Part shown: piece by piece, positions 9,154-32,323 of the stretch
Layout: every line of letters begins with the position of its first letter
Position numbering within the stretch: position 1 is the stretch's first letter
Origin: Takakia lepidozioides
Taxonomy: Eukaryota; Plantae; Bryophyta
DNA: 64,000 bases
Assembly (NCBI GenBank): GCA_030704615.1
Contig: CM060734.1
Coordinates: 1,798,001 to 1,862,000 of the forward strand
Direction: 5' to 3'
Position numbers and translations under genes: made by a program
The notes under the pieces: generated by a model
What the model was told of the DNA's origin: nothing
The model's input: only the letters and a program-made list of their open reading frames with translations
Database searches by the model: none

Positions 9154-9496
9154 CAATCATATTTACGGTAAGGTGTTTGATGCTATTGTTGTTCCTCTAG
9201 CTGAATTCTGTAATACTCTTTTTGCTATTCCTATGCCAACAATATCGGGTCCTCTAAGACTGTCATGTTCAAACGAACGTATCAGCCACCCCGGCCAGCT
9301 TGCAGCCACGACACCATCACTTGCATGAATTGGAGATTTGGTGCTCAGTTCCTGGTTTCATGTCCATGGTGGCTGATACGGAATATGGCAGTCCCAGTGG
9401 ACCTGATGTTGTTGGCATGGGAGTAGCAAAACGATTCCTAAAGAAATCAGCTACATGAACATCGGCAGTATGAAACACCTTGCAGTACATATGATT
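9154..9496. repeat. Diverged ~115-bp inverted repeat pair
   Basis: 9154-9270 and 9380-9496 are diverged reverse complements; the ORF track shows parallel translations NHIYGKVF..PMPTISGPL (+) and NHMYCKVF..PMPTTSGPL (-). Confidence 0.75.
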
Positions 9497-9689: not shown

Positions 9690-10735
9690 GAGATCAATGT
9701 GGCCTACGGGGAGGCATGATTGGCAGACGATGACGCGTTACCTTCAGCCTCCCACCAACAAACATGACATCATTTCAGAAACGCTTCAAGTGACGAACGA
9801 AATGGTTCATCTGACATCATCCAAATGCTGAACATGGTGAGGTCTTCTGTAATGTGTTTTACTTCGTAATGCGGTGCTTCTCTAGCTTTTCTTTTTCCAA
9901 TTTGATGAAATTCTCGATCTGGAAGACATCCAGACGTGTATAGAAATAATAATAATAATAATAATAATAAACCCATGAAAATGAGAAGTTGCGGTCCGGG
10001 AATGAGGCTTTAAATTTTGATGGTTTTTTTGGTTTTTTTTAGGATTTCTGCACACCTGTGGATCTCTTCCAGATCGAGAATGGCACCAAAAAGAGGACAT
10101 AGAGAAGCACCGCATTACGAAGCAGGAGACACTACAAAAAGAGCTTCAAAAAGCAGGGCACCCATGAAGGTGCTTAATCAATGGGCAATCGAATCATTCA
10201 CCTCCTTCTCAAATGGTTGACGATCCAAATGGTTTTTGTTTGCTTCAACTTAACCACTGCGTTCAACATACCATGCAACAGGTCCTGGTACATCAATGTG
10301 GCCTAGGGGGAGACATGGTTGGGAGACGAGGACGCGTTAGCTTCCACCAACAAACATGTGATCATTTCAGAAGCGCTTGAAGTGACGATGGGCAAGGTTC
10401 TTCATCCAAATGTTCAACATGTTGAGGTCTTCTGTAATGTCTCTTGCTTCGTAATGAGGTGCTTCTCCAACTCTTATTTTTTCAATGTTGATATTCTCCA
10501 TCTAGAACATATCCACACATGCATATATAAATACTTAAAAAAACAAACGACGATCAAAACTGGAAGCTGGGGATGAGGCTTATAAAAGTTGCGATGGTCA
10601 TTTGGTTACTTAAGGATTTCTGTACACATGTGTGGATCTGTTCCAGGTGGAGAACATCGACATATTGGATAAAGTGGACATGAAGAAGCACCGCATTACA
10701 AAGCAGGAGACACTAAAAAAAGAGCTTCAAATGAC
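9690..10735. repeat. Tandemly duplicated (~600-bp period) foldback unit
   Basis: Units start ATCAATGTGGCCTA at ~9693 and ~10291; each has internal inverted arms, e.g. CTTCGTAATGCGGTGCTTCTCTA / TAGAGAAGCACCGCATTACGAAG. Confidence 0.8.
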
Positions 10736-11150
10736 ATACCATGTAACAGGTCTCGGTCTAATATGAGACGAAACGAAATTCATTCAATGGGCGATCGAAT
10801 GGTTGCCCATCCAAATGATTTTCGTTTGCTTTCAATCTTTGTCACTATGTTCAACATACCATGTATTATGTCTCCGACTAATATGAGATCAATCAAAATT
10901 CATTCGATGGCTGAACGGATGGTTGCCCATCAAAATGATTTTGGTTCCCTTTGAGACTTGGCCAGTATGTTCAATGTACAATCTAAGAGGTCCCAGAGTA
11001 ATATGAGATGAAACAAAATTCGTTCAATGGGCCAACGGATGGTTGCCCATCCAAATGATTTTGCCACTGATTTTGCCAGCATGTTCAACGTACCATCTCA
11101 CAGGTCCCAGAGCAATATGAGATCAATCAAAATTCGTTCAATGGGCCAAT
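10735..11150. repeat. ~120-bp tandem satellite, left block
   Basis: About 3.5 copies of ...AATATGAGA..AAATTC.TTCAATGGGC.AACGGATGGTTGCCCATC.AAATGATTTT...; same family recurs at 23350-23760. Confidence 0.85.
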
Positions 11151-11310
11151 GAGGCGTTCACCTGTCATCCAGTTTTTGTTCATTGCGAAAAAAAAATCCT
11201 GCAATGCGTGCACGGCTATTGCACCCATTGAACGGATGTGGTTAAAGCCTATCTTTAGCATGTGCTTGAACATGTGTGCGACACATGTGCAGAGACACAA
11301 CAGAAGACAA

Positions 11311-11642
11311 TGTCAAGTTAAATAAGCACAGTGTGAAAACAACTAGAATAAAGCTAGTTATTTGTATTTAACACTTGGATTTAGGTCAAGTGTTAAATCA
11401 GGTGTCAAGTTTAGTTTGACACCTGAACCGCCTTATCTTCACGAGAGCGGCAGTCGCGCAGCTCATCTCTCTCGAGTTGAGCCTGCGCGACCGAGCTCTT
11501 GCATCGTTGAGGACTGAGTGTGCTTATGATGGGAGTATAGGTTGTTGTGGGGTGGAGTCCCCATAGCTTGGGGTGCCCCTGGCTCGACTTCTATTTTAAA
11601 GAATGATAGCGATGGATTTCATATTTCTTGTGTTGAGAGTGT
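11311..11642 (+). repeat. Repeat A1 (5' terminal repeat of copy 1; its 3' end and primer site are missing)
   Basis: Highly similar to 22457-22795 and 59436-59765; similarity stops at ~11642. Confidence 0.92.
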
Positions 11643-13525
11643 GAGAACCAGGAGCTGGTAGGAGCTGACGGGCATCTCTGCTGCATGGTTTTGGAGATTG
11701 ACGAGCATGCAAGCTGCTCATGTGTAACCCTTTGATCAGGTATTGGACCAAAACTTGCGATGGACTGAGTGCCCACCCTAGATGGCCTGTTTGGCATCCA
11801 TAATTGTTTCCCCTGCGAGATATGAAGCCAATGTTGTAGGGGCTTACTGGCATGACCAAATCGTGGATCGACAAAAGGGCTCGGAAATCAGCTGCATGAA
11901 CTAAGAATTCACCGCTACTTGACTACGCTTTCTGTTCACGATACCAGTGCCTTATGCAATGAGATCCGGTTTACTGGAGGACAAGGGGATTGCTACTGTC
12001 TGTCCTACACAGTAAGCAGCCATTGTGTTTGTAAGAGCATGACACTAGAAAATGGTTGTGGATGAAAGATGTTTGGTATTCACCTCCAATCTGAGGTGAG
12101 TCCTTCCACAAATTCATGACCTGCATGGGAAGGTCTTTGTGATGTGGGGCGAGCTGGGCCTCCTGGTACAAATGGGTCTTTTTGTTGCTGGAAAGGAAGC
12201 ATGCAGTCGCTGTCTGGGCACTCCGACGAAAGACCCAGTGACTGCTCAACCTTAACAAGACCCAATCCTTCAAAAAGCACTAGCTCCACAATTGGGTGGG
12301 CAGCTGGTTGATGAGATGAGAAGTAGCAATGTTCTCCTCATACTCGGTACACTGCAGCCTGCGCGCATGGAGACGAACTCCGTAACCGCGTCCTGTGCTC
12401 CCATTTGTCAGGGAGGGAAGCTGAGTGCATGGCATTAGGGTGTGCAGTGGAAGGGGTAGATCGATCGCACCGAGCATGGTCTGTGGTTCGCAGAGTGGGA
12501 GAGACAATGTGTGGTGTGGTAGAAGAGAGAGTAATGGTGGTCTGCCCAGATTCCTGTTGGCATTGGTGAGGTGTGCTTCCACTGTAAGGGCGCCGCTCGC
12601 CTGCGGAGGATATGCCGATGGTAGCTGGTGGTGGTGTGATGTCAGGGCCCCCATAGAGCCCGCTGCGGTGAATGGGAGCAGCGAATGGGGCAGCAGTGAA
12701 TGGGAGTTCAAGTAGAGCCAGCGGCTGGAGAGCATGAGAGTGGGAGACTGTGGACTCACCAAGTGACACTTGGTGTATGAGCGGGATATGAGCTGAAGGG
12801 GCCCAGCTCACTACACGACCTGCTCGGTCTATGTTTACAATCCAGAACTTGAGGGCAGCCTGTGCCAACTCCATGTAAAGGCTTACACAATCAGTGATAG
12901 CAGATCTGTTGTTGCCACCTTGAAAAATCAGCACGCATGAAGGGCTGTAAGCGTTCTTGATCAAGCTAGTTAGCTCTGGTGCTTTCCGGGGTTGCATTGT
13001 AAGTGCTCCTGCTTTTGTTGGGAATATTGGTGCAAAGGATTAAGGCTCGGCATAGCTACGGATCTCGACTGGAGGAGAGCAGGTCACTGGTAACCAAGAG
13101 CTGTGGGGGGTGCATTTGTAAACACAACTGAAATCCTAGGAATTATAGGGCACGTGGCCAGGGAACCTAGGAAACCATATAGAACTTAGGGAACCGGGAA
13201 CCAGTTACCAGATATTTTGGGTGTAACTTTAAATTTTTTAATTTGAAAACCTTTTTAAAAAAAAAACCCCCTTTTGATCTAATTTAAATGATTTAAAGCC
13301 AAATCGGTCATATCTTTGTCAAATTGACTCTGTTTGACTCAGTTCTTGAGGGGATAGCTGCAGAAAGGGGATATCTATCTATCTAGACCTGGTTTTTGTT
13401 TTTGGGACTCTGCTAGAAATCTATGGAATTTTTAGAGTGTGAGTGTGCCATGAAAGATCCACAATCCTGTTTCTAGAACCTGTTCTGGTCTACATGAGAG
13501 ATAAATCTGGGGATGTACTCCTTGT

Positions 13526-14272
13526 ATGGCTGGGGGAAATGAGGACGTAATTGAAGGGCAGGTCTCATCTCTTAGCCTGTGCACACAAGGGGACAAGATT
13601 TATGTTTCCCAAGGAACTCAAACTGATTTGAGTGGAGAACAGTTGGACGAGTTGATTGCATACTGGGAGTCAGGCATTAGCAGTAGACAACAAACTGCTG
13701 TAGTTGGCGTTGAGGGCCTCAATATTGCCTTGGACAGTCAGAACTCTGTTGGAGCCAGCAGTTCTCCAGCTATAGGTGACATACCAAAGTGGGTGAAAGC
13801 TAGGCTGGAACACAGCCAAAGACAGCCCCGGGGACCAAGGTGTTCAGCCACAAGGCCGTGGTGTACTGGAGCAGAGGAGCAGGAGCTGCACAAGTTTGTG
13901 CAATCAGACATGGTTGCAACCGGACACGCTCTGCACAAGGCAACCACGAGCGGGGGTTCATTAGCAATGACAAGTTTGTTTTGCTTGAAGGAGATGCAGT
14001 CATTCGCAATGATGACACCCACAACCGTCTCAAAGCTTTCGAGTTGAGAGACTATCAGACCCTACCTTTGTTTTCTTTAGCGTTCAGTGAGCGGGAGATA
14101 GTAGAGTATTGCTTTGTCTCTACCTGGCAGAAAGAGGAGGAGGGTTGGTTAGAGCGAGCTATGTAGCTTGGGAAAGGTTAATGGCAGGTTTCTGGACATA
14201 GATATACCTCCTACACCTTACCATCATGCAGAGCGAGGTACTTTGAGAGAAGTCTGGCAGTTGATAGCATAG
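13526..14272 (+). CDS. Subfamily-A-specific upstream ORF (ORF0, ~245 aa, unknown function, frameshifted as given)
   Basis: Conserved at 62131-62879 with synonymous and conservative changes (CAA/CAG, ATT/ATC, D/E, I/V); absent from copies 2 and 3. Confidence 0.6.
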
Positions 14273-14811
14273 ATCAAGATTAGATCTTGCTTGGTCGGCC
14301 TTCTATTCTTCCCCTCCATCTCTGTACTATTTTCATTACCTTGTACTTGTAGTTGCCAAAGCCTCTCTTGGTGGAGGCCAGTCAGTCCGGGGTTTTGAGC
14401 TGGGCTATTCTGCAGGATCAGCATTGCAGCTGGATTTTGGGTGGGGGGGGTGTTGATGTTTTGATTTCTTGTGTTTGGATCCCCCCCAACACCTGCATGT
14501 TTGACTGTGCGCCATGTTGGTTTTGTGTGGGCGCTTGCTTTCATAGGGATTAGGCCGGATTTGATCACCGGTCAATCCTAGAGTATGTTATCGGTGGTGA
14601 GGCTGGAGTGATGACCAGCAAGACCACCAGTGTTTCTTCTATGGTGAGACTGGGTTGATGACCAGCCAACCATAGGAGTTCTTGCGGTGGATGCAGGTGC
14701 AGGTGCCCTGAGCCATGGGATATGACCCTTAAAACTGCAACAGGTGCCTACCGTGTCACTATTAGAATTAGTAATAGAGTCTTATAGTGTCACGTGGGGG
14801 AGGTGCACATT

Positions 14812-17800
14812 GTGAGTGTCATCACGGAGTTACCCAGGGGTTTGAGGGGAGTACGGCTACAGGCAGTAGTAGCAGTGAGAGTGGGTTTCACCAGACGAGG
14901 TGTTTGTTTCAGACCACCTTCACCTCCACCCTCAACTAGTGCAGAGTCAGACACAGACTCGGAGGCTTCATCAACAGGAGTGCAGTTTCATTCGCCATTG
15001 TTGTGGGGACGACATGGAGGAGATGTATGGAGCTACCAAGGGGCCTCGTAGGTACTCTGGAGCTGTGGGCACAATCGAGTTGGATGACTTTATCCAGGAG
15101 TTCGACAGCTGGTGTGATTTGCAGCAGATGCGCAATCACAATCTATTCACCCCATTCATGGCGTGGAAGGGACTGTTCCAGCATTTGGAAGGCCCGCCTA
15201 TGGACGATTACCACGAGTTCAGGCGAGGACATGAAGCAGAGATTGAGGAGTGGAGGATGTATTGGTCACCTGACTACGTCTCCATTACTCGAGGCATGAC
15301 GCGACCAGTAGCTGCATCAGTACCAATATCTCCCATTGCCAGCACTAGTAGTGGAACAAGTAGTGCCGGTACTTCTGCAGGTGGTACCAGTTCAAAAGGT
15401 GCTACTACTCCTCCTGCCACGACTACAACACATGTGCCTAGATTCAACCCGGTGGTGGAGTTCTTCCAGGAGTTGCGGAGGAACTACCAAGGTGTACGGA
15501 CAGAGAAGCTGCGAAGTTTGCAAGACTTCCAGCGCAAACCCAATGAGAGCCTGCGAGAGGCGTACACTCGTATGAGGCGCTTGATAAGTGTGACCCAAGG
15601 GGTTACTGAAGCTCAAGCAATCCAGTTCTGGTATGGAATTTTGGACAAGGAGCTCAGGAGAAGGGTGCGGGATGCAACCCTGTTACAAGCAGCCCAACCC
15701 ACATTAGAAGAAGTGTTTCTGCTGGCTGCCGGATTGAGCTCAACATGGTGGAGGAGTGAGTTGTTACCATTGGATTTGGCAAGGACATGCCTGCACGAGG
15801 CGCAGCTGCCAGCCAATAGGGGCACAAGGGACTGCAAAACAGCGTGGTCAGGGGGGCAAGGTTTCCCAACCCAAGTTCCATGGAGCTTACAGGGGACCTC
15901 AGGTGCAGAGGCCCATGGCATCTTTTGCAGGGCCAAACAGCAACCAGGGGTGATATGTTGGACATGTGGAGGACCCCCTGTCAAGAGAGATTGCACAGAG
16001 AGTGGCAGAAGGCCGGCCAAGCACAGCCTGCACAGTTGCAGTGTGGGCATTGTGGCAAGTATGGGCATGGAGAATGCCCAGTGTTATGACTGCATCTGAG
16101 TTGCGCCCAGGCCAGTTCCAGGGAACAATGGTGGCCGGGGGTGAGGTGGACCAGCCCAGAGAGGACGAGGTGGTCGGGCACGAGGTGCAGACAAGGGCAA
16201 GCTCAACATGGCCAAGGACGCGGAGGTCAGGGTGTTGACCAAGGCATGGCCCAAACCGGCTTCAGCAGCTAGAGCAGAGGCTCGCTGCATGGCTACAGCT
16301 CAGGCGCGTGGTACCGAGCTCCCAGGAGGGATGGTCCGCCTCCTGCGCCTGAGGGAGGAGATATGGGAGGCATGGGATTCATGTGCGGAGCAGCACTACC
16401 ACTAGTGCAGGTGGAGTCTGTTGCAGCCATGACTCGAGGAGCAGCACGAGTTCCTGAGCCACGAGGTGCAGAGGTGGAATTGGATCCACAGCGTGGGGAG
16501 GCAAAGCCGTCAGGCGAGGCTTCTCAGTCATTCACATTGGCGGAGACTGTGTCGACGCCATCCATGGCACCTAGTTCTCGTCCGACTGTTACCGAGGCGG
16601 AGGTTACTATGTCATTGGGGAGAGCACACGTGCAGCACTGATACCTGCTACCAAGGCTAGTGCAGCCGGTGTGTTAGGGGGGCAGCCACCTCTGTGTGTC
16701 AAGCCCCACTTTTCTCGGCAACCATGATTGCGATGCCGGGGGTAAGGCTACCTGCAGTATTCAGACTAGCAGCAACACTCTATGAGTGTGGGGAGGTCAC
16801 TTAATCTTCTACGGAGTTACTGGAACGTGGTGTGGCAGAGGGATCCTCATATTTGAGGGTCAAGACTGCCACGGCTGCGCCGTGGCAAGCTGCAGCTGCC
16901 AAGTTGACGGAGTGGCCAGCTAGGCCAGCCTTTGAGCGCGCCATGGTGACACCTGGAGTTGTCTTGTTAGACAACCAGGATGGCATTTTCTCTTTGAGTG
17001 GACCGGCAGCAAGAAGTACCGGCCACTTCGGGTCTTGTTGGATTTGGGAGGATCAGAGCAGGTCTCGGGGCATGACACGGCGTGATTTGGCCATTGGACA
17101 CAAGTAGATCATCCTGTAGATGGCTCAGTGATGCGAGCCAAGGCCATTTGTGACAGACGCGGCCTTACAATGTCTCGTTGGTGGGGCAGTGTTATATCCC
17201 TGGGCTTCACCCTGGACTTTTGGGAGGAAGTCAACATCCTACAGGCCTGGATGGCAGTCAGGGGATAGTCGTCGTGCACAGCTCCCTGTGACATTCATTG
17301 GGGGTATTGCGGCGAATAAGGGGCAAGATGCCAACACTAGCCGCCTTTACAGCTACAGTTAGTTGGCCTGGAGAGTTGCTGAAGGCATGCCCATGACAGA
17401 GGATGTGTCACCTCCAGAAAAGCAGGATGACATGCATGGTATGGCGGAGTGAGTGCCTGCCATGGTTGCTCATACTCCATTGTGGGGTACGAGCAAGGAT
17501 TTGTAGCAGGTTGCTGATCGACGGGTGCAACAAGCCTGGGTAGAGGCTTTTGTACCGTCAGGAGAGGCGGATGAGGATTGAGGGGTATTGCACAGGACCA
17601 CCTCAGTTTTCACCATTGGATACACACCTATTGTGTGGCAGTATATGGATGAAGGCATTTGCCTTATGGACTTGTGGCTGGATCAGCACCGGATTGGCTG
17701 CTGTGCTACAGGCAGGTGTGCGGGAAGGCGTGTGTTACCTGTATGTGGAGATGGATGAGACTGACACGATGCATCTCACTGCGGCCAGGTAGCTTAGTTG

Positions 17801-18944
17801 GATACAGCAGTACCCTGACTTGTTGCCTGTGTCTGCAGTTCGTGGGATACCAACAAGCCTTGCCAGCAGACATTTCCTTGTTGGGGGCGCAGGATTTGGG
17901 GTAGGTTGGCTCCATTGATCTGATAGTGGCAGGTTGGCCCTGCCAAGAGCATTCATCAGCCGAGCATGGCAATGGATTGCGAGACTCGAGGACGGGTCTG
18001 TTTTGGGAGATGGTGCGCGGTTTGTGCCACTTGCAGCTTCATCAAGCTGTATCTCCAGCATACATCTTGGAGGAAAATGTGCCAATCGATGGGTATTCTG
18101 GGGCCAGAGTGATGGCCAGTGTGCATCAAGTCCGGTCGTGGCTTGGGTCAGCAGTGTTGCTGGAAGGCAGCTGCAAGTGGGGTCACGGGCTCATCGTCCA
18201 CGGCTTTGGTGGACAACTTAATGCCACCCGCAATGCTCAAGCGTGCATTTGCATGGGGTTTTTATTGCAGGCGGCCAATAGCAACCTCACCGTGGTGATG
18301 GAATTTTGGAAAAGGGAGGCAGTCTCAACGTGTGGACACGATTGACGTTCGCCTTTGGAGTGGGTAAACAGGGTGGGGTCAACCAAGAGCAGTGGGTCAA
18401 CCACGAGCAGCATTAACTACACTACTCAGCTTCCCAGGATCCCATGCTTTTCGGGATGGTGGACCTGGCGTCTTGTGGGATAGCCAGTTGCAACAGTTAG
18501 TGGAGCCTAATGCCGATGAGCGAGAGCGGGCTATGGGATTTTCCACTGGGACCACGGCGGTGCCTTCTCTTTCTGAGGCATCACGTCGTCAGGTGTTGGG
18601 GCAAGCAATGGATCTCAATTGCTTGACCTCGATTATCAGCTTGGCTATGGCCGAACAACGTAGAGTGCGGAGTGCACTTCCCTTGACGGTCTCTCTCTGC
18701 CTACCGAGACGGTACAGGCAGCGAGTGGGGGCGAGCCGGTGAAGACCACGGGTGTAGACATCCATGGCTCACGTGGGAGGTGCTCGAGGTTCAGAGGGAG
18801 TTGGCAGCCAAGGCAGCTGTGATGGATGAGGTTGGGGATTCTTCTCGGGCTGAGGAGGTTCTCAATGATGAGATGATGGGGCAGGATGAGGCCTTATCAT
18901 TGACTGAGCAAGAAGGGAGTACTGCTCAAGAGGTTGCAGCATAG
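14812..18944 (+). pseudogene. gag - protease - DNMT polyprotein of copy 1 (frameshifted)
   Basis: gag (MEEMYGATKGPRRYSG..., QRKPNESLREAYTRM), Zn knuckles (CWTC.., CGHCGKYGH), degenerate protease, DNMT motifs (GWPCQ, ENV, ERERAMGF, LGQAM); ends at TAG 18942-18944. Confidence 0.85.
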
Positions 18945-21900
18945 CAACCACGGGACGCGTCCTCTACCTCTAAGCCCACTGGACTTAACGTTGCAGTTAC
19001 GGAGGACAATTGGGAGCCTGACATTGGACCCATTGTCACCGGAGGAGAGAGACGACGAATACGGCGGTTCCTGAGGGCTTACAGGAATTGCCTTTGCCTT
19101 CAGTTTGAAGGACTTGGGAGCACTGAAGGGTCAAGAGATTCGCATTGAATTGGCTACTACTGACACGCCAATCTTTCGGAGACCCTATAGATACAGTGAC
19201 ATGGAGAGGTCCTTGATTCAGATGAGAACTCAGGATCTTTGGGAGGCTGGTTTGGTGGAGCTATCTGGGGGAGAGTATGCTTCAGCCACAGTGATGCCAG
19301 CCAAGAAGGATGTCTATGGCAATTGGACGGAGAGACGTATGTGCGGTGATTACCGGCCTGTAAATCGTTAGACCAAGTCCGATAGGTATGCCATGCCGAC
19401 ACCAGATGAGATCTTTGATGCCATTGGGCATTCCAAGGTCTTTAGCACGTTGGATTTACGATCCGGATATCACCAGTTGCCGATCAAGGAGGCGGATAAG
19501 CAAAAGACGGCATTCTGGGGGATCAATGAGCATGGGAAGGATTGCCTATACCAGTGGCGGTTCTTACCATTTGGGCTTAAAAACGCTCCTGCTGAGTTTC
19601 AAAGGGTCATGGACAGGATTCTAGCAGGGGTGGAGTTTGCTTGGTGCTACATAGATGACATCATCATCTTTAGTGCTACGGTGGAGGAGCATGAGAAGAC
19701 ACCTTCAGGGGTATTTGAGGCGCTTGAGGACGCACGGATTGAAGTTACATCCGGGAAAGTGCAAGTTTTTCTACAACCAGATTGAGTATCTGGGTCACAT
19801 GATATATCCTGGAGGATTGGGGGTACAGCAGACTAAGGTAAAGTCCATTGCACAGGTTCCACGCCCCACGGATGTGAGCTGAGTTCGAGCTTTCATGGGG
19901 TTAGCAAACTATACAGACGGTTTGTTAAGGGATTTAGTGCCATTGCAAAGGCTCTAACCAAGCTGACCAAGGTGGACCAGGAGTGGCAGTGGGAAGATGA
20001 GCAAGAACAAGCTTTTCAAGAGCTCAAGGCGAGGTTGACCTCGGCGCCCATCTTGAGACGACCTATTAGGGGGCGTCCTTTTCAGCTGCATACAGATTGG
20101 AGCATGCTGGGGCTTGGAGCGGTGTTCACACAGGTGGATGATGAGGGAAGAGAGTTCGTTGTGGTTTACGCTAGCCGCTCGAACAACATTGCAGAGTCTA
20201 AATATAGCTCATATGAGGGAGAATGCTTAGCTGCAGTGTGGGCCGTGGCACATTTCAGGTGCTATCTATACGGCAATCTCTTCACCCTGGTCACGGATCA
20301 CCAACCACTCAAGTGGTTGATGGAGTCAGACAAGCTTACGGGAAAGCTTGCACGGTGGGCACTCATCCTTCAAGAGTATGACTTTCAGGTGGTGCATCGA
20401 CCGGGTTTGGTCATCGCAATGCAGATGGGTTGAGTTACAATCCATGCATGAGCCAGCAGGATGACACTGGAGCTCGGTGGCATGGTGAGACGGACGAGGA
20501 GATGGTGACCGGATGGCATGCATCTGCATTTCTGTGTATCTTGGCAGCGGAAGGCCAGGTTGGACCTGCAACAGGGATGACTGTAGATCAAGTGTCTAAG
20601 GACCCTGAGGCCAGCAATGAGCAAGGTGGCGCCAAAGATATACATGAGGATTCAGTTGTGTTGGACTACCTCCGCACTGAAGACACTGCAGCCATTGTGA
20701 CTGCCAAGGAGAGGGATCGGATCCTACAACGAGCCAAGAGGTTCAAGTGGGAGGGGACACACCTGCTCCGAGTGTGGGAGGATGGTCGAGTGAGGATTGT
20801 GCCTCACCCAACATAGCGGGCACGGTTAGTGCGGCATGCCCATGAGGAGTTGGGGCATTTTGGGGTGCGACGCACCATAGTCTACTGCAGGGGCAGTATT
20901 GGTGGCGTGGTATGCACAGAGAGGTGCAACAATTTGTGGCTAGGTGCATGGTGTGTCACAGGGTGCGTGCTTCATTCAACGCCCCTACTCCACAATTGCA
21001 CCCTCTTCCGATCATGGGATTGGGCTACAGGTGGAGTCTTGACTTCGCAGGGCCATTGCCACTGACCATGCGTCACAACAAGTACGTGTTAGTGATGGTG
21101 GAGCACTTCTCCAAGTGGATTGAGTTGGTTCCATTCATGCCTGATAAGGCTAGTGAGGGAGCTGCGTATTTCATTCTTGGATTGTGTGCTTAGCCGATTC
21201 GGTGCCTCCAGTTGAGGTACTCACGGACCAAGGGAGAGAGTTCTTGGGGTGTTTTTTCAGGCTTTGTGTGAGAAGGCCTTGATAGAGAACCACCGCACCA
21301 CTTCTCGGGATCATCCTGAGGCCGATGGCTTGGCAGAGAGAGTTGTTCAGACAGTAAAGAGAGGTTTGCGCAAGTATGGCTTGCAGAAGGGACACCTAGG
21401 AGATTGGGACCTTCAGTTACCCTGGTTGGCCATGGGCTACAGGTTCAGCAAGCAAGCATCACTTGCCTCCTTCTCACCAATACTTTCTTCTCTTTCGGCC
21501 GAGAGCCGGATTTGCCTGCATCCATTCACAGAGAATGCTGCTACAGTTCTTAACCTTGACGATCCGGACGTGTGGGCACGTGCATTGTGAGCAGCTTGCA
21601 GAGTTGTTCAAGAAAAGTCATGGCCTGCCCATGGCTTTCGAGAACCTTGCCATTGCACAACATCGTGATACGTTGAGGTATGCTACCATACATCGTGGTG
21701 GGGGCTATCGTCCCTGGGGGTTCGAGATTCAACCCCTGGTGACTATGTCTATCTGCAGCAGACTGCTCCTACGACCTTGGATGTGACTGCAGGACGTGTT
21801 ATTTTGAGGGTTCGAGAGGTCTTGCCCTCAAGGCGTCTTGGTCTTGGAGGGTCGGGATGGCATAACTTGAAGGACCATGTGCGTAATTGTGCGCCATGTC

Positions 21901-22109
21901 ACCTTCCGAATGTCGATTGGCAGGATTGACCCAACCTGGCAGTGGTATCTGCAGGTTTGAGGTGCATGTTGTGTGGGTCTGCTAGAGGGGCAGCCACCAT
22001 GCTGGTGTGTGATCGATGCTCCTAGAGGGTTGGCATATGGGCTGCTTGACTCCACCTCTTGAGATGGTTCCGGATGGGGGATTGGTTATGTCCACATTGC
22101 ATTGGATAG
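18945..22109 (+). pseudogene. RT - RNase H - integrase - PHD of copy 1 (frameshifted)
   Basis: LDLRSGYHQ, LPFGLKNAP, YIDD; TDWS..ECLAAVWA..TDHQPL; HHCC, LDFAGP, TDQG, AERVVQTVK; C-terminal CMLC...CDRC...H..C...W.CPHC. Confidence 0.9.
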
Positions 22110-22369
22110 TGGGAGTGGATACAACCATGGAGGGCTAACAAGAAACGCAAGGTCAAGCTACTAGGGGACCTTGAACACACGAGGTCTTGACTCAAGTTCA
22201 TAGATTGCAAGACGGCGACTAGCGATGGGGCTATTCTTGTACCCGGCTTCTTGGTCTATAGAGTTTGAGTACAACAGGGACAGTGATAGAGGACTTAGTA
22301 CAGCTGTGGCTATTACATCTTGTAGCTATCTGGAGTTAGAGGGACCTATCCACCAGCTAGGGGGGCGAT

Positions 22370-22900
22370 TGTGGCAGACTACTTTATTGTGCATATATGT
22401 GTGGTGTGGTTTGGACAGCGATGGAGTTATGTAGCGATACGTATGCGCACGACAGCTGTCAAGTTAAATAAGCACAGTGTGAAAACAACTAGAATAAAGC
22501 TAGTTATTTGTATTTAACACTTGGATTTAGGTCGAGTGTTAAATCAGGTGTCAAGTTTAGTTTGACACCTGAAACCGCCCTTATCTTATCTTCACGAGAG
22601 CGGCAGTCGCGCAGCTCATCTCTCTCGAGTTGAGCCTGTGCGACCGAGCTCCTTCATCGTTTAGAACTGAGTGTGCTTATGATGGGATGATAGGTTGATG
22701 TGGGGTGGAGTCCCCATAGCTTGGGGTGCCCTTGGCTCGACTATTATCTTAAAGAGTGATAGCGATGGATTTCATGTTTCTTGTGTGAACAGTGTGTTCT
22801 TAGCTTTCTATTGATTGTGGCAGACTACTTTATTGTGCATATATGTGTGGTGTGGTTTGGACAACGATGTAGTTATATAGCGATACGTATGCGCACGACA
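22370..22900 (+). repeat. 3' terminal B1-gc-A2-B2 block of copy 1
   Basis: B1 22370-22454 (85 bp), GC 22455-22456, A2 22457-22815, B2 22816-22900 (85 bp; 3 differences from B1 by eye). Confidence 0.93.
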
Positions 22901-23349
22901 ACAAAATCATTTGCCTCCCCATCGACGCGCTCAGCCCTCAACCCATTCGAGAATTTAAATGAATTTGAAGCCAATAATTAGGTTAACACTGCCTTTCATT
23001 GGGGATTTCTGCCACGTATCGATTTTTTTTTTTTTTTTTTTTGGGCTGAATTTTGTTCTACGGCTTCAAATCTCCCACCGCTACATCCCTGCCAAAATTT
23101 GGACCAATACACATGATAAAAAAAAAATGTTGTCTTCACTCATTATTGCAGAACTCTCTGTGAAGAGTGCATGAAGTAAAACACAAAATCAAGTTTGGAG
23201 TGCAAACCACAGGGAAGAAATTGTGGTTCCCCGGTCCCAAATGAATTTGGTTCCCTCCCAAATTTGGCACGCACAGTGCATATGGAGTCATTACACATAT
23301 GGTTCAGAAACGGAATGAAAAAAAATTCATGAGCACGCGAAACGCAGTC

Positions 23350-23760
23350 CAACAAGTCCCAGAGTAATATCAAATCCAACGGAATTCATTCAATGGGTGA
23401 ACGGATGGTTGCCCATCCAAATCATTTTTGTTTGCTTTCAAACTTTGCCAGTATGTTCGAGAAACCCTCTTACAGGTCCCGTACTAATATAGATCAATCG
23501 AAATTCATTCGATTTGGCTCAACGGATGGTTGCCCATCAAAATGATTTCCGTTCGCTTTGAGACTTGGCCAGTATGTTCAATATAAACCATCTAAGAGGT
23601 CCCAGAGTAATATGAGAATGAAACGAAATTCGTTCAATGGGCCCAACGGATGGTTTGCCCATCCAAAATGAGTTTTTGTTCGCTTCGAGACTTGGCCAGC
23701 CGCCTGTTCAACCGTACCATCTGACAGGTCCCAGAGCAATAAGAGAATCGAAATCGAATT
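23350..23760. repeat. ~120-bp tandem satellite, right block
   Basis: Same unit as 10735-11150. Confidence 0.85.
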
Positions 23761-24179: not shown

Positions 24180-26272
24180 CCAGTCACAGTAGGGACCATG
24201 CGGCTTGGACACCACAAATTCTTTTACCAAAAAAATGTCTCTTTCTACCTCCAGACCCTGCAACCTTGCTTTCACAGTTCCAATAAAAATCAGAGTGCAA
24301 AATCGAGATATCTCTGTAGAAACACTTTTGGACTCAGGGGCTTCAACATGTTTTATTGACAAAAACTTTGCGAAGCAATACAATTTAACGCTCGTAAAGA
24401 ATAAACTCTCGGCCCCGTTGAAGTCATCGATGGACCGACCGTTAGCATCAGGAAATGTTGACCATGAAACTTGACCACTTGAAGTGAAGCTTGAAGATCA
24501 AGCATCACGTATTGTTTTGAACATCATCCAGTCTGCAACGAATCTTGTGATCCTTGGACTTCCCTAGTTCGTACTTCACAATCCTGACATCGACTGGCAA
24601 TCGCGAAAAATTTCTAAAAGACAAAAATGTAGAAATATCAAAGGTATTCAACCCATGTTCCTTGGAGCTAGAGCTTTCGTGAGAGCTACCAAAAATGATG
24701 CGGCATTTGCAGTTTATGCGACTCTGATCAAGACCACAACAGACAAAGGTACTTCGACATTACCCACTCAATATCAAGCTTTCAATGATGTCTTCGAGAA
24801 GAAAAATGCAGACATATTGCCAGAACATCGACCTTATGACTGTGCAATTGAGTTACAATAAGGAGCCCAACCACCTTTCGGCCCAATCTATAACTTATCC
24901 CAGACGGAGTTGGCTGCATTACGTGAGTACATTGATGAAAATTTGTCGAAGAAATTCATCCGACATTCAAAATCACCTGCGGGGGCGCCTATCTTGTTTG
25001 TGAAAAAGAAGGATGGATTATTACGTATGTGTGTGGACTATTGCGGTCTCAACAAAGTCACAATTAAGAATCGTTATCCGTTGCCGCTGATTTCTGGGCT
25101 TCTCGACCAAGTGGAACGAGCGAAGATTTTCACCAAAATTGACTTGAGATGAGCTTATAACCTTGTACGGACAAAAGAAGGAGACGAATGGAAAAGAACT
25201 TTTTCGAACAATGTATGGACATTTTGAGTACATGTTATGCCCTTTTGGTCTTACAAATGCTCTAGCAATTTTCCAACATATGATGAATGACATCTTTCGA
25301 GAATTCTTAGATGATTTTGTAGTCATCTATTTAGACGACATTTTGATATTTTCACAGAATGAAGAAGAACATGGCCGCCATGTACGCCTTGTCCTTGATA
25401 AATTAAGAGAAAGATGACTATATGCCAAGTTGGAAAAATGTCTTTTCCATCAATCTGAGGGCGAATTTATGGGCTACATTATTTCCAACAAAGACGTCTT
25501 TATGGATCAGAAGAAAATACAAACCGTCATCGAGTGGATTAAACCAACTTCGGTCCGAGATGTACAATGTTTTCTGGGATTTGCAAATTTCTATAGAATC
25601 TTCATCAAGGACTACTCCAAAATTGCTGCACCATTGACACAACTCACAAGGAAGGACAAATTTGTATGGGACGAGAAGGCTGACCAAGCATTTGAAAAGC
25701 TGAAGCAGACATTTACAACGGCTCCAATACTGGTACATGCAAACCCATCTAAACCATTCTTTTTGGAAGCAGATGCATCGGACTTTGCACTTGGCGCGGT
25801 ACTCTCTCAATACGGTACATATGGCTGACTTCACCCTGTTGGTTTTCATTCTCGCAAATTTTCCGTTGCAGAGATCAATTATGAAATCCATGACAAAGAA
25901 CTTTTAGCGATTATCAATGCTTTTGAGGAGTGACGTCATGTATTTGAGGGAGCTAAATATCAGGTCATTGTCTATACTGATCACAAAAACCTCGAGTATT
26001 TTATGAGTGCTCGTGTTTTGAATCGACGTCAAGCGAGATGGAGTATGTCACTAATAATGTTTGATTTTGTTATTACTTACCGTCCCGGACATCTTCAAGG
26101 AAAACCAGATGCTCTTTCTCGACGATCGTATTTTGCGCCGAAAGAAGGGGATGCAGTTTTTGACCAACAAAAATCCATCATCTTGAAATCAGCAAATCTC
26201 CAATTGAATATGCTATACATGTCCACCTATGACAATGCAGAGATCATAAAGGAGATTCAGGAAGCACTGAAA
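24180..26272 (+). mobile_element. Degenerate Ty3/Gypsy (Tcn1/Tf2-like chromovirus-type) pol fragment
   Basis: [26 protein letters not shown] / YLDDIL, RNase [34 protein letters not shown]; many in-frame stops; cut off before the integrase. Confidence 0.92.
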
Positions 26273-26929
26273 AACAAGAAAGGAAGGAAGGGGCTGGTTT
26301 CCCTGTAGGGCATGTGGAGCATGCTTTCAGCCTGCTGAAGCTTGTATTTTCAGGTTTGTGGGTGCAAGAAATGAAGCAAAGGAGCTGATTCTCTTTTGGT
26401 GAGAGTGGGGCATGTGTGGAGCATGCCTTCAGCCCATTGAGGCTCTTGTTTTCAAGCTTTAGAGAGCTAGAATGGAAGGTCTAGGGCTGGTTTCCACTTG
26501 GAGTGAAAGAAAAGCACTTGTAGGGCCTATGTGAGTTGGGGTTTCAACTTCAAGCTTGAAGGGAGCGCAACTCTTGAAGCAGCAGGTGTAGGGGGCTGGA
26601 ATAGGCTCTAAGACAGATGTTATGGCCAAGGAGAGTGCTTGAATGAGTGCTCACAAGAGCTGGGAACCAGCAGGGCTTGGTTGTTTGCCATTGAGTTTAG
26701 TGGCGTGTTTGGGGAGGCTAAGTGAGAAAGAAGGCTTGGTTTGTGGCAACCACCTCATGGCTTAGGGCTACTATGGTGGTGTGTGGGAGCCGAAAGAGCA
26801 AGAATACCTTGCTGATTTCCTCACAGCCACCATAGCTCGGTGGAAAGAAGCCTAGAGTCCAAGAGACACAAACCCTAGCTTGGCGTGGCTAAACCCCTTG
26901 GAGAAATGGCTAAACTGCCAGAGCGGCCA

Positions 26930-27500
26930 TGGATGGGGCTGTGACGGCTGTGGGGCTGTGACAGGCTGTGCCTGGCCTTGGGGCTGTGTGTGACATGGGC
27001 TGTGACAGGCTGTGCCCATGGCCTTTGGGTGTGATGGGCTGTGAGGGCTGTGTTGCCTGAGGCCTGTGGGGCTGTGACAGGCTGTGAGCTGTGACGGGTT
27101 GTGCGGGGCTGTGACAGGCTGTGCCCAGTGGCCTGTGGGCTGTGACGGGCTGTACGGGCTGTGACAGGCTGTGCTGGCCTTTGGGGCTGTGATGGGGTGT
27201 GAGGGCTGTGACAGGCCGTGCCTGAGGCCTGATGTGGGCTAAGAAAGGGGCTGTGATGTGGGCCCTGTGCCCATGGCCTTTGGGCTGTGAAGGCCTTTGG
27301 GGCTGTGAGGGGCTGTTGTGAGGGCTGTGAGGGCTGTGACAGGCTGTGCCTGGCCTGTGGGGCTGTGACGGGCTGTGCGAGGCTGTGACAGGCTGTGAGC
27401 TTGACTGTGACAGGCTGTGGTGGCCTGTGGGACTGTGACGGCTGTGACCAGTGAGCTGTGTGGGCCTGTGCTGGTCTGTGGTGGCCCGTGTTGACCTGTG
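26930..27500 (+). repeat. GGCTGTGA-type degenerate minisatellite in the leader of copy 2
   Basis: Dozens of GGCTGTG(A/C) units. Confidence 0.9.
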
Positions 27501-28159
27501 GACGGCCTGTGCTGACTCGTGGAGGCACTGGTGGACTGCCTAAGGACTGGCATGTGGTCTGGAAGGCCGAATTTTGAAGCTCGTGGAGGGCGGTTTGAGG
27601 AGTATCTTCATGATATTCCCATGGTCATGCAGGAGAGAGTGTTGGGATGAGGGCATGCTGGGGTTAGGCATTGCTTTAGCTTCTCTTCCTCGTAGTTTCC
27701 ACCCTCTCATTAGGCCAAGACCTTTCCGTAGGTGGAGGCAAGAGTCAGTCCGGGTTTGGGCTGGGGTGTCCTGGAGCAACACCGTGGAGTTGTTTTTGGT
27801 GTGGGGGAGTTGTCGTTGATTTCTTGTGTTGGATCCCCTCCATACCTGCATGCTTGACTGTGCGCCATGCTAGTTTTGTGTGGGCGCTTGTTTTTATAGG
27901 TGATTGGTCCGGATTTGATCACCGGCCAGTCCTAGAGCATGCTGTCGATGGTGAGGCTGGGGTGATGACCAGCCAGACCATCATTGTTTCTCCTGTGGTG
28001 AGGTTGGAGGTGATGACCAGCCAACCATAGGAGTGCTTGCGGTGGATGCAGGTACAGGTGTAGGCTATGTTAGGAACTTAGTATTCCAAACCATAAGCCG
28101 CAACAGGTTCTCTACCCGGTTACCTTGTGAGAGGGGTTTAGGGACATGTTCATGACCGG

Positions 28160-31070
28160 TTGAGTGTCAACACGGAGGTGCCACTAGTTGCTGGGGACAG
28201 TGCCGGTTCGAGCACTAGCGATACTAGTGGGTACACGAGACGAGGTGTGCGGTTTAGGCCACCTTCACCTCCTGTGTCTTCCACGGAAGGTTCTGATTCG
28301 GATTGTGAATCAGGAGGACTCATACCGGCGGTGCAAGTTGTTTCTTTGCCATTGTTGTGGGACACAATGGAGGAGATGTATGGAGCTACCAAGGGGCCAC
28401 GAAGGTACTCTGGGGCGGTGGGCACCATCGAGTTGGATGATTTTATCCAAGAGTTTGATAGTTGGTGTGATTTGCAGCAAATGCGCAATCCACAACTATT
28501 TACGCCTTCATGGCATGGAAGGGCTGTTTCAGCACCTTGAGGGGCCGCCTATGGATGATTACCATGAGTTCAGGCGGGGGCATGAGGTTGAGATCGAGGA
28601 GTGGAGGATGTACTGGTCACCCGACTATGTCTCCATCACTAGGGGCACTAGAGCCACGAGGGCAGTGGCTACACCTGCCGCTGCACCGGCAGCTTCAGCA
28701 AGTAGCAGGGTGGGACTGGTGGTACAGTAGCTACGACGTCCACCCAAGCCACTACCGCACCAGCACTAGCACCCGTGCCTGCCTTCAACCCTGTTGTGGA
28801 GTTCTTCGAAGAGTTGAGAGGGAACTACCAAGGGGTGAGGACAGAGAAGTTGCGGAGCTTGCAAGAGTTCCAACGGAAGCCGACCGAGAGCTTGAGGAGG
28901 CTTTCACTCGCATGAGGCGCTTGATAAATGTAACCCAAGGGGTTACGGAAGCTCAGGCAGTCCAATTCTGGTATGGGATATTGGACAAGGAGCTGAGGAG
29001 AAGGGTGCGGGATGCAACTCTCCTACAAGCGGCCCAACCCACCTTAGCAAATGTGTTTTTGCTGGCAGCGGATAGAGCTCAACATGGTGGAGGAACGAGT
29101 GGTCATGGTGGGATTTGCTAAGGAGACACCACGGGGTAGTGGTGCTCCTAGCCAACCACTACCTCAACGTGCTCAAGGCAACAAGGGGGCTCAGGTGAAG
29201 CTCAGGGAAGGGCAGAGAGGACCTCAGATGCAGGGGTCTCTCCCTTCATTTGCTGGCCAACAACGGGCGGATGTGGTGTGCTGGACATGTGGAGGACCCC
29301 ATGTCAAGAAGGATTGCCCAGAGGGAGGCAAAGGGCGGCACATGCACAGCCTGCACAGTTGCAGTGTGGGCATTGTGGCAAGCACGGCATGGAGAGGCCC
29401 AGTGTTATGGTTTGCATCCTGAGTTGCGCCCAGCCAGTTCCAAGGGAACAATGGTGGCCGGGGGCGAGGTGGAGCAGCCCAGAGAGGACGAGGTGGCCAG
29501 CCACGAGGTGCAGGCCAAGGGCAAGCTCAACGTGGCCAAGGACGCGGAGGTCAGGGTTTGACCAAGGCATGGCCAACCGGCTTCAGCAGCTAGAGCAGAG
29601 GCTCGCTGCCATGGCTACAGCTCAGGTGGTACCGGCTCTAAGGCCGGATGGTCCACCTCCTGCTCCTGAGGGAGGAGATATGGGAGGCATGGGATTCATG
29701 TGTGGAGCAGCACTACCACTAGTGCAGGTGGAGTCTGCTGCAGCCGTGACTCGAGGAGCAGCACGAGTTCCTGAGCCACGAGGTGCAGAGGTGGAGTTGG
29801 ATCCACAGCGTGGGGAGGCAAGCCGTCAGGCTAGGCTTCCTCAGTCATTCACATTGGCGGAGACAGTGTCGACGCCATCCATGGCACCTAGTTCTCGCCC
29901 GACTGTTACCGAGGCGGAGGTTACTATGCCATTGGGGAGAGCTACACGGGTAGCACCACTACCTAGTGTTGCCAAGGCTACGGCAGCTAGTGTGCTGCTA
30001 GGAGCGGCCACATCTGTGTGCCAGGCTCCATTGTTCTCGGCTACCATGATTGCGACGCCGGGGGTAAGACCAGCTGAGGTGTTCAGGCTGGCAGCTACAC
30101 TCTGTGAGAGTGGGGAGGTTACTTCATCTTCTGCGGAGATAGTGGGAGGTGTAGTGCCGGAGGGATCCTCGGATTTGAGGGTCAAGACTGCCACGGCGGC
30201 GCCATGGCAAGCTGCAGCTGCCAGGTTGATGGAGCTGCCAGCTAGGCCAGCCATTGAGCGCGCCATGGTGACACCTGGAGTTGTCATGTTAGACAACCAG
30301 GATGGCATTTTCTGTTTGAGTGGACCGGCAGGCAAGAGGTACCGGCCACTGCGGGTCTTGTTGGACTCGGAGCTCAGCCATTGATGCTGGGCAGAGCTGC
30401 TATTGCAGGCTTGGGCCTCACGGAGGCGGATATGGAGCCTTGTCCTTTCCAGATACAGACGTCTCTGGGAGGATCGGAGCAGGCTCGGGGCATGACACGG
30501 CGTGAGTTGGCTATCAGACTACGGCCGGATCACCCTACAGATGGCTCAGTGATGCGAGCCAAGGCCATTGTGACAGACGCAGTCTCATACGATGTCCTGG
30601 TTGGTGGGGCAGTGTTGTACCCCATGGGCTTCACCCTGGATTTTTGGGAGGAGTCAGCTTCCTATAGGCCTGCATGGCAGTCAGGGGAGGGCCGGCGTGT
30701 GCAGCTCCCTGTGACGTTCATAGGAGGAGTTGCGGTTGCCCAGCGAGGCAAGATGCCGACACTAGCAGCATTCACAGCGGCAGTGAGTTGGCCTAGAGAG
30801 TTGCTTGAGGGCAATGCTCATTCAGAGGATGTACCACCTCCGGGAGAGCAGGATGACATGTATGGTATGGCGGAGTTGCCTACCATGGTTGCTCAGACTC
30901 CATTGTGGGGCACGAGCAAGGATTTGCAGCGGGATGCTGATCGACGGGTGCAACAAGCCTGGGTGGAGGCTTTTGTACCGTCAGGAGAGGAGGAGAGTGT
31001 GGGGATTGCACCAGGACCACCTCAATTGTCTCCATTGGACACCACACCTATTGTGTGGCAGTATCCGGAT
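28160..31070 (+). CDS. gag (two Zn knuckles) and aspartic protease of copy 2, with single-base frameshifts
   Basis: gag core; CWTCGGPHVKKDC and CGHCGKH; LRVLLDS(G)..YDVLVGGAVL protease signature at ~30350-30620. Confidence 0.85.
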
Positions 31071-32030
31071 GAAGGCATTTGTCTTCTGGACTTGTTTGGC
31101 GGGATCAGCACCGGATTGGCTGCTGTGTTACAGGCAGGTGTACGAGTTCGGCGTTACCTGTATGTGGAGAGGGATGAGACTGCACGCGTTTCACTTCGCC
31201 ATGTTGCTCAGTTGGTGCAGCGGTACCCTGAGTTGTTGTCGGTGTCTGCAATTCGTGGATATCAGCAGGCCTTGCCAGCAGACATTTCGTTGCTGGGGGC
31301 GCAGGATTTGGAGCGGGTTGGCTCCATTGATCTGGTAGTGGCAGGTTGGCCCTGCCAAGGGCATTCATCAGCCGGGCATGGCAATGGATTGCGAGACTCG
31401 AGGTCGGGTCTGTTTTGGGAGATGGTGCGGTTTTGCGCCACTTGCAGCTTCATCAAGCTGTATCTCCAGCATACATCTTGGAGAATGTGCCACTGATGGG
31501 CGATTCTCGGGCCAGGTGATGGCCAGTGTGCATCAAGTCCGGTCGTGGCTTGGGTCAGCAGTGTTGCTAGATGCAGCTACAGTGGGGTCACGGGCTCATC
31601 GTCCACGGCTATGGTGGACTAACTGATGCCACCCGCACTGCTCAAGCGTGCATTTGATGGGGTGCAGCGGCCAGCACATCTCACAGTGGATAACATTCTG
31701 GACACAGGGAGGCAGTCTCAGCGTGTGAGACACGATGACCGTTCGCCTTTGGCAGTGGTCAACAAGGTGGGTCAACCACGAGCAGCATTACCTACACTGC
31801 TCAGCTTCCCAGGATCGCATGCTTTCCGGGATAGTGGACCTGGCCTCCTGTGGGATGCTCAGTTGCAGCAGTTAGTGGAGCCTAATGCTGACGAGCGTGA
31901 GCGGGCAATGGGTTTTACCACTGGTACCACGGCGGTGTCGTCTCTTTCTGAGGCATCACGTCGTCAAGTGTTGGGGCAAGCAATGGATCTCAATTGCTTG
32001 ACCTGGATTATCAGCTTGGCTCTGGCTGAG
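31071..32030 (+). CDS. DNMT3-like C5 cytosine DNA methyltransferase domain within the retrotransposon polyprotein
   Basis: Motif I LLDLFGGI, II YVERD, IV AGWPCQ, SGLFWEMVR, VI ILENV, VIII AHRPRLWWTN, IX ERERAMGF, X RRQVLGQAM, in non-permuted order with a short TRD. Parallels DNMT3 AHRARYFWGN / EMERVFGFP / RQRLLGRSW. Read across small frameshifts. Confidence 0.93.
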
Positions 32031-32314
32031 CAACGCAGAGTGCGGAGTACACTTCCCTCAATGGTCTCTCTGCTACCGAGACGGTACAGGCAGTGAGTGG
32101 GGGCGAGCATGTGAGGACCACGGGGTGCATGCATCCATGGCACACGTGGGAGGTGCTCGAGGTTCAGAGGGAGTTGGCAGCCAAGGCGGCTGTGATGGAT
32201 GAGGTTGGGGATTCTTCTCGGGTTGAGGAGGTCCTCAAGGATGAGATGATGGGGCAGGATGAGGCCTTGTCATTGACTGAGCAGGCAGGGAGTACTGCTC
32301 AAGAGGTTGCAACA

Positions 32315-32323
32315 TAGCAACCA
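32315..32323 (+). promoter_or_regulatory. UAG-CAA-CCA stop-codon readthrough-type signal (also 18942-18950)
   Basis: Matches UAG-CAR-YYA; present in both subfamilies; in copy 1 it is in frame with the downstream pre-RT sequence. Confidence 0.75.

Follow-up and report, generated by a model that had tools for sequence, protein, structure and literature searches.

How does a retrotransposon that carries the integrase of the Ty3/Gypsy group come to be inserted with its ends lying inside its own long terminal repeat (LTR)? The question is raised by a 64,000-nucleotide (nt) stretch of Takakia lepidozioides (contig CM060734.1, positions 1,798,001 to 1,862,000; hereafter the window, to which all coordinates refer unless a locus is named), which holds four broken copies, in two subfamilies, of one retrotransposon family. 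Copy 1 (11311-22900), the only one in the window with both ends, reads A-internal-B-GC-A-B between ACAA repeats. The repeated unit, B-GC-A, is bounded by the polypurine tract (PPT) and the primer site, as in Ty3/Gypsy elements, and inserted copies start and stop inside it. This layout is real and lineage-wide. We propose, with a probability of about 0.7, that in this green-lineage Ty3/Gypsy clade the two ends of the complementary DNA (cDNA) are joined and the integrase then cuts CA^GC in the left repeat.

To describe the ends in the window, we compared the surviving repeats of the four copies. All coordinates of the first-pass annotation, which had been made from the sequence alone, were reproduced, including the 5' ends beginning TGTCAAG (11311, 38734 and 59436), the ACAA on either side of copy 1, and the 3' ends of copies 1 and 2, both of which read PPT-B-GC-A-B with a palindrome at the B/A joint. 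The sequence GACAGCTGTC occurs in the window only at 22451 and 35872, both of them B/A junctions (chance expectation: 0.056). In copy 1, the two A repeats (11311-11643 and 22457-22796) are 92.6% identical counting gaps (15 substitutions in 320 aligned positions), and B1 and B2 differ at 3 of 85 positions. The B of copy 2 is longer than the 85 bp of copy 1, and its two B repeats are identical over 176 bp. The A/B junction had been given as TATCA-T-TGTG, which is correct for copy 2 (36200-36209), whereas copy 1 reads ATTGA-T-TGTG. Related tandem units flank copy 1 (10738-11147 and 23345-23758), consistent with insertion into a single repeat tract; tandem repeats as a whole were detected at 9693-11149, 23345-23758 and 26934-27512.

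Relatives (L-numbers) were collected with a reverse transcriptase (RT) profile, which yielded 80 metagenome loci and L082 from genome contigs (81 loci analysed, L002-L082, most too short or distant for a visible end), and a search with the B-end pattern added L161. The RT search of genome contigs returned 78 loci, of which L082 alone was close and was examined for repeats. Duplicate assemblies were merged (L003/L007, L011/L012, L010/L013 and L026/L029), and five loci were excluded from the 3' tally (L020, rearranged; L023, contig ending in A; L032, B truncated; L015 and L082, unclassable). The results showed the same pattern in relatives with 55-78% RT identity. All 11 of the 5' ends (3 in the window, 8 at other loci) read flank-TGTC-A, B being absent both upstream and after A. 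All 21 classifiable 3' ends lie at GACA, one of them decayed (L053); 15 read B-GC-A-B and then flank, and the other 6 read PPT-B and then flank. Every complete insertion (5/5) carries a 4-bp target-site duplication (ACAA, AAGG, CATA, TACA and TACA), in agreement with the fixed TGTC/GACA ends proposed in the first-pass annotation. The last two of these, L013 and L047, have the A-internal-B form that it had predicted as a further product. The B-A-B arrangement was found in three families outside the window (the L003 group, the L026 group and L082/L161).

Conventional BA...BA copies, whose absence had also been foreseen, were not found: among 39 rows covering the start of B and 32 covering the end of A, neither boundary meets unrelated flank, L020 aside. 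Two complete LTRs as insert ends, a trait of Ty3/Gypsy elements, were thus not encountered, and for this reason we class the family as a variant rather than an ordinary member of that group. No solo A-B product was seen among the loci, which were chosen by RT content. L020 itself (4923-5819) reads, in order, inverted A fragment, incomplete A, some 11 nt from the primer site, GCTA, B and flank, and may be an aberrant product of reverse transcription or a deletion. A candidate repeat at L065 was rejected (unrelated flank), and the viral contigs gave one unrelated locus and 23 pattern matches, none with element domains.

The site at which the insertions end is more uniform than the ends of the repeat unit. 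Internal B/A junctions have a 2-nt spacer in 18 of 18 cases (GC in 11), and across these 18 junctions the A/T positions of the motif GCACGACA-GC-TGTCA are invariant, with decay at C/G consisting mostly of transitions. The ends defined by reverse transcription vary by family (TATCA/TTGTG, TTTTCA/GTTGTG, TTTTG/GTTTGG and TCTCC/TTGAGG). Because the cut site is conserved while these ends vary, selection appears to act on the internal site rather than on the tips of the cDNA. The A/B junction tracks the changing ends in each family, always placing the primer-site end against the PPT end, and is therefore best read as a join of cDNA ends. The proposal that B-GC-A is the unit of reverse transcription held for its boundaries, a PPT before B and a primer site after A; its TG...CA ends, however, are not lineage-wide, as the last two families show.

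Signals for ordinary reverse transcription are present. The PPT adjoins B1 and is conserved. In copies 3 and 4, the only window copies with a visible primer-site boundary, the 16 nt after A are the complement of a segment lying some 150 nt inside A, and the primer region of copy 4 folds back on itself (z -4.9; 0/200 shuffles). A self-complementary primer site with other letters was detected in L003, L013, L023, L057, L082 and L015, and weakly in L011 and L047. These complementarities predict Tf1-type self-priming of reverse transcription, which has also been predicted for plant Tcn1 (PMC6317226). With a PPT before B and a primer site after A, reverse transcription should give B-GC-A at both ends of the cDNA.

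The enzyme is a DDE integrase without a tyrosine recombinase, as the first-pass annotation had held. The domain order is gag, protease, C5 cytosine methyltransferase, RT, RNase H, integrase and PHD finger, the last standing C-terminal to the integrase in the place of a chromodomain, which is not present. The window integrase gave rve and H2C2 domain matches, and the integrase of an intact relative matched Ty3 (E 5e-21) and foamy virus (PFV, E 2e-18) best by sequence; its predicted fold (predicted local distance difference test, pLDDT, 85) likewise matched the Ty3 and PFV integrases best. The integrase spacing could be counted in 51 of 120 proteins with a readable motif: D,D(34)E was found in all 21 PHD-bearing protein matches, as in window copy 2, and D,D(35)E in 25 of the remaining 30, the 5 exceptions being close relatives. 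No tyrosine recombinase was detected among 84 open reading frames (ORFs) of the window, L003, L082 and L015 (best 5 of 7 families for two long ORFs), and PF00589 is absent from the domain lists of the 120 RT protein matches. An integrase loop of R[DNEQ]HP type (copy 2, 34427-34978) is common to the PHD clade; loss of a Tyr in this loop was rejected as a diagnostic, Ty3 also being without it. The protease domain was named in intact relatives at scores below the cut-off (L082: E 8e-4; L015: E 2e-4).

To assess the layout independently of the assembly, we examined contigs of public runs (X-numbers; X1, X3 and X4 come from one sample, possibly that of the window, and X7 from another organism); the counts that follow are those among the matches listed. 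For the copy 2 repeat, 40 contigs of X3 exit after GACA into unrelated sequences (agreement 0.36), and one contig of X7 has its B end running into unrelated DNA. The primer site follows TATCA in 9 contigs of X1 and 2 of X5. The A/B joint was found in X1, X3 and X5, with variants carrying an added T, TAT or CCT. For the copy 1 repeat, 20 + 20 contigs exit after GACA (agreement 0.39), 15 and 9 contigs reach B from sequences ending in TATC, and one read piece reads PPT-B-flank. Because the A/B joint (X5) and the passage from B into unrelated DNA (X7) occur in the runs of two other studies, and because unrelated assemblies share the layout with target duplications of their own, the layout is not an assembly artefact. 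Since long pieces carry a bias against the mirror form discussed below, the 4 junction-B-flank pieces of the copy 1 repeat were given no weight in judging that form. An origin of the layout in ordinary LTR elements, through rearrangement once inserted, nesting or mis-assembly, is accordingly very improbable, for while the window copies are frameshifted and nested, the copy 1 leader is foreign and contigs L015 and L082 are collapsed or tandem, the breakpoints are identical in at least four families, all 5 of 5 duplications lie at TGTC/GACA with no conventional ends, and the joint and its flanks are present in independent runs.

The reading that we favour, in which the ends are joined before the cut, would run as follows. 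Reverse transcription of the ordinary LTR kind, with self-priming like that of Tf1, would produce B-GC-A-internal-B-GC-A, and the end of A would then be joined, mostly flush, to the start of B. In the left repeat, the DDE integrase would cleave both strands of the palindrome at CA^GC and insert the ends so made. The 2-nt stagger would leave CA-3'OH ends with 5' GC overhangs, the geometry of processed retroviral ends, and the GC would be lost in gap repair, so that a cut of this kind in GACA-GC-TGTC would explain its absence from the insertions. PFV integrase performs such a cut in vitro, cleaving both strands of its junction palindrome after CA, with 2-nt 5' overhangs as the result (PMC1180852). 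One-repeat circles cut in the same way would give the A-internal-B copies. Tf1 cDNA ends often retain primer-site sequence and added bases (PMC11042837), and such additions would fit the A/B junction variants and perhaps L020.

The weakest step would be the choice of the left palindrome, the first after the join. A symmetric circle contains two equal palindromes, and the simple two-LTR circle of the first-pass annotation would yield the mirror product, A-B-A-internal-B, in about half of the insertions. The 11 5' ends included no such case (95% upper bound: 24%), and among 19 3' ends no more than 4 could be compatible with it (P 0.0096 at 50:50), so that the simple form of the circle is not supported and an asymmetry is needed. 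Our preferred source is the reverse transcriptase, which on completing the plus strand could jump end to end onto the 3' end of the minus strand and displace B up to the integrase-bound site, giving a nicked circle; alternatively, the circle could be ligated and the integrase held near the junction.

Comparison of the B repeats suggests that B1 and B2 of an element come from one template. They are 100% identical in copy 2 and in L161, while the B of L082 differs by 5%; in one family, private columns are common to 5 of 8 own B pairs compared with 2 of 56 cross pairs; and both B repeats of copy 1 have A where G holds 98-100% of read depth. A tree of the B copies was mostly unresolved. Several observations nevertheless count against the favoured reading. 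The own B partner is the nearest in only 6 of 14 elements (a weak test), and private columns in another family occur in 0 of 4 own pairs and 1 of 12 cross pairs (uninformative). Most A/B joins are flush, and within a family they are alike, a pattern that inheritance through RNA would fit as well. The A-internal-B copies can also be obtained by recombination between B1 and B2 or by assembly collapse, and L015 and L082, which read PPT-B-GC-A-primer site, are unclassable (collapse, tandem or one-repeat circle). Loose left ends were absent among the matches listed, where only single pieces occur (X5 record 20; X6 record 31). The circle as a molecule and its cleavage are steps that we infer, and the mirror product that a symmetric circle predicts is missing. 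L082 is a circular 9285-bp contig (1-127 = 9159-9285) in a bacterial bin; it carries a single B-GC-A unit and two ORFs, both intact, and is either a collapsed repeat or a one-repeat circle from a eukaryote.

The alternative that survives best, which we consider unlikely, reverses the order: the integrase would cut the left palindrome on linear cDNA, keep hold of both products, a long one and a short one made up of B, and insert them, and host repair would join A to B in the chromosome without any free circle. The final layout, the duplication and the 2-nt loss would be the same, the junction variants with added bases fit repair, and the distance of the palindrome from the cDNA end (85-176 bp on the left, about 330-360 bp on the right) could bias the choice of site. 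Against it, every insertion would entail breaking the chromosome, flush junctions are in the majority, and the A-internal-B copies (6 of 21 3' ends) would arise only through later recombination.

Less probable still is a route like that of PAT and Ngaro, with the integrase replacing the recombinase, in which a full-length transcript would include B2, the internal B-GC-A would splint the circle, the integrase would cut the closed junction and the A/B junction would be inherited via RNA. It has the A1-B1-A2-B2 layout of those elements (PMC4157794) in its favour and would account for both the missing mirror product and the uniformity of the junction within families. The PPT at B1 and the primer site at A1, however, indicate LTR-type reverse transcription and not the copying of RNA past the 3' R, the first and the second B copies are not distinguished by any fixed column, and the junction always consists of the primer-site end and the PPT end.

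The element and the proposed joining of its cDNA ends before internal cleavage can be set beside several known systems. Canonical Ty3/Gypsy elements (including Tf1/Sushi and Tcn1) share the domain order, PPT, self-priming site, DDE integrase and 4-bp duplication (PMC6317226, PMC11042837), whereas here the ends lie inside the LTR, a PHD finger replaces the chromodomain, the integrase spacing is D,D(34)E where theirs is D,D(35)E, and the ends defined by reverse transcription are not always TG...CA. At LTR-LTR junctions in foamy virus and HIV-1 a palindrome is likewise cut after CA on both strands, as we suppose here, and PFV loses 2 nt (PMC1180852, PMC4372172); in those viruses, however, the palindrome forms where the cDNA ends meet and a conventional provirus results, whereas the site here is internal and distinct from the junction, which passes along into the inserted copy. 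PAT, Ngaro and VIPER share the split direct repeats A1-ORFs-B1-A2-B2 (PMC4157794) and use a tyrosine recombinase, in contrast to the integrase, PPT and duplications found here. The clade connects the LTR and split-direct-repeat designs. In elements of IS3 and IS30 type, a circle whose two ends abut across a 2-3 bp spacer is cut at those ends and inserted by a DDE enzyme; these are bacterial DNA transposons whose junction is made by the transposase, whereas the junction here is preformed inside the LTR.

To place the family, we built a quick RT tree of 75 rows. The best RT matches are from Calypogeia (79%) and Marchantia (77%); together with a PPR gene at 47.7-48.8 kb they suggest that the host is a land plant without seeds. 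PHD- and methyltransferase-bearing rows fall with Klebsormidium, Closterium and liverworts in a clade of 56 rows (support 83) containing an inner clade of 37 rows (support 97), and chromodomain rows fall outside the 56-row clade. A Klebsormidium RT (P0050, not identified with the element KnitGypsy-Dnmt3) lies inside it (Shimodaira-Hasegawa-like approximate likelihood ratio test, SH-aLRT, 83). In L077 and L081, two distant elements on a long branch for which no ends were found, the methyltransferase follows RNase H and precedes the integrase, and a PHD finger is also present. Marchantia matches with PF00145 extend methyltransferase-bearing Gypsy elements from an alga to liverworts.

The first-pass annotation knew of no described Gypsy lineage with this structure. 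The legend of Fig. 4c in de Mendoza et al. (2018), however, describes KnitGypsy-Dnmt3 of Klebsormidium nitens as having DIRS-type repeats with Gypsy domains (PMC5890265). Gypsy pol domains with a C5 methyltransferase and a DIRS-type repeat layout are found in the window family as well, and the window, L082 and L015 differ in having an in-frame stop that separates the methyltransferase from RT. The text and three supplementary text files of that paper give no end sequences, palindrome, duplication or mechanism for KnitGypsy-Dnmt3; its figures may show more. In a literature search made without Repbase, REXdb, the REM1 paper and most subscription papers, we found neither a mechanism for the layout nor KnitGypsy-Dnmt3 elsewhere. 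The layout has therefore been noted once in print, and its mechanism is unexplained in the literature searched; self-priming, the D,D(34)E integrase and the likely leaky stop after the methyltransferase are additions made here.

Taken further, the evidence gives slightly better than even odds to a broader reading: an old green-lineage Gypsy clade, as a whole, moved its attachment site from the cDNA ends to a palindrome inside the repeat, and its only substrate for integration is cDNA with joined ends (circles), one-repeat circles included; its integrase, with a catalytic core one residue shorter, would act as a double-strand site-specific cutter. Circular retroviral cDNA is usually called a dead end for integration (PMC4372172). 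Whether it can be an integration precursor is an old question of retrovirology, on which this clade, with its defined site of 10 bp, would bear as an example from nature; relatives carry integrase genes that are naturally intact, so that a short in vitro assay could address it. If the broader reading is true, these would be natural LTR retroelements with circles as an obligate precursor, and a model for the origin of split-direct-repeat elements from LTR elements. LTR finders that require two full LTRs would probably miss or mis-trim such elements.

The stop after the methyltransferase (TAG CAA CCA) recurs in the lineage. At 22 of 49 RT starts (19 after merging duplicates), a stop that is in frame and has CAA CC behind it lies 387 nt upstream of the RT match. 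CARYYA is a leaky-stop signal, and a stop followed by it lies within 480 nt upstream of RT in 15 of 49, several out of frame, compared with 0 of 49 inside RT. In L082 and L015 the motif is the sole stop between two long ORFs. On these sequence grounds the stop is likely leaky, which would put protease and methyltransferase at the level of Gag and RT-integrase under readthrough. The arrangement is not universal, since several matches have methyltransferase and RT in one predicted protein.

Table 1. Positions of the element features in the window and of the stop motif in two relatives.
Copy or locus	Feature	Position	Strand	Remarks
Copy 1	Left target-site duplication	11307-11310	no strand	ACAA
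Copy 1	Repeat A1	11311-11643	+	begins TGTCA; last ~25 bp and primer site missing
Copy 1	Leader	11644-13256	+	unalignable with copies 3 and 4; no Pfam match
Copy 1	gag	14879-16099	+	frameshifted; weak Retrotrans_gag match below cut-off, CCHC knuckles after
Copy 1	Aspartyl protease region	16805-17360	+	broken
Copy 1	C5 cytosine methyltransferase	17650-18740	+	broken; PF00145, E 3.5e-10
Copy 1	In-frame TAG CAA CCA	18942-18950	+	between methyltransferase and RT
Copy 1	RT and RNase H	19075-20430	+	broken
Copy 1	Integrase (H2C2, DDE core) and C-terminal PHD finger	20382-22100	+	broken; approximate limits, domains scored on copy 2
Copy 1	PPT	22355-22368	+	AGCTAGGGGGGCGA
Copy 1	Repeat B1	22370-22454	+	85 bp, ending CACGACA
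Copy 1	Palindrome GACA-GC-TGTC	22451-22460	no strand	putative integrase site
Copy 1	Repeat A2	22457-22814	+	
Copy 1	A/B junction	22810-22820	+	ATTGA-T-TGTGG; putative join of both cDNA ends
Copy 1	Repeat B2	22816-22900	+	right end
Copy 1	Right target-site duplication	22901-22904	no strand	ACAA
Copy 2	Whole copy	27521-36381	+	second subfamily; 5' end lost
Copy 2	TAG CAA CCA	32315-32323	+	same stop motif
Copy 2	Integrase core	34427-34978	+	D,D(34)E
Copy 2	PHD finger	35182-35436	+	
Copy 2	3' end, repeat B1	35700-35875	+	followed by GC
Copy 2	3' end, repeat A	35878-36204	+	followed by T
Copy 2	3' end, repeat B2	36206-36381	+	
Copy 3	Whole copy	38734-44094	+	3' part lost; inside another Gypsy integrase gene
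Copy 3	Repeat A	38734-39050	+	
Copy 3	Primer site	39051-39066	+	complementary to 38882-38897
Copy 4	Whole copy	59436-64000	+	extends past window end
Copy 4	Repeat A	59436-59784	+	
Copy 4	Primer site	59785-59800	+	complementary to 59586-59601
L082	Stop motif	3489-3497		
L015	Stop motif	5083-5091		

The remaining window copies add minor points. All four copies carry frameshifts. The 5' end of copy 3 is preceded by CAGC, the last 4 nt of B-GC, which leaves this end ambiguous by 4 nt; the CAGC is also explained by the interrupted host integrase frame (PFQL), and a target preference for CAGC was rejected because the flanks of other insertions differ. The 5' leaders of copies 1, 3 and 4 (11644-13256, 39075-40634 and 59810-61861) are mutually unalignable, while copies 1 and 4 are 95% alike downstream.

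No tRNA genes were found in the window. Fragments of another Gypsy family comprise the integrase broken by copy 3 (38400-38733) and an RNase H upstream of copy 2 (25418-26305). A broken LINE-like element lies on the minus strand at 659-5368 (RT match: E 1.8e-8; endonuclease-like frame judged by eye), and the same strand carries a PPR-repeat frame (47680-48834) and a weak SUFU match below the cut-off (44179-44982).

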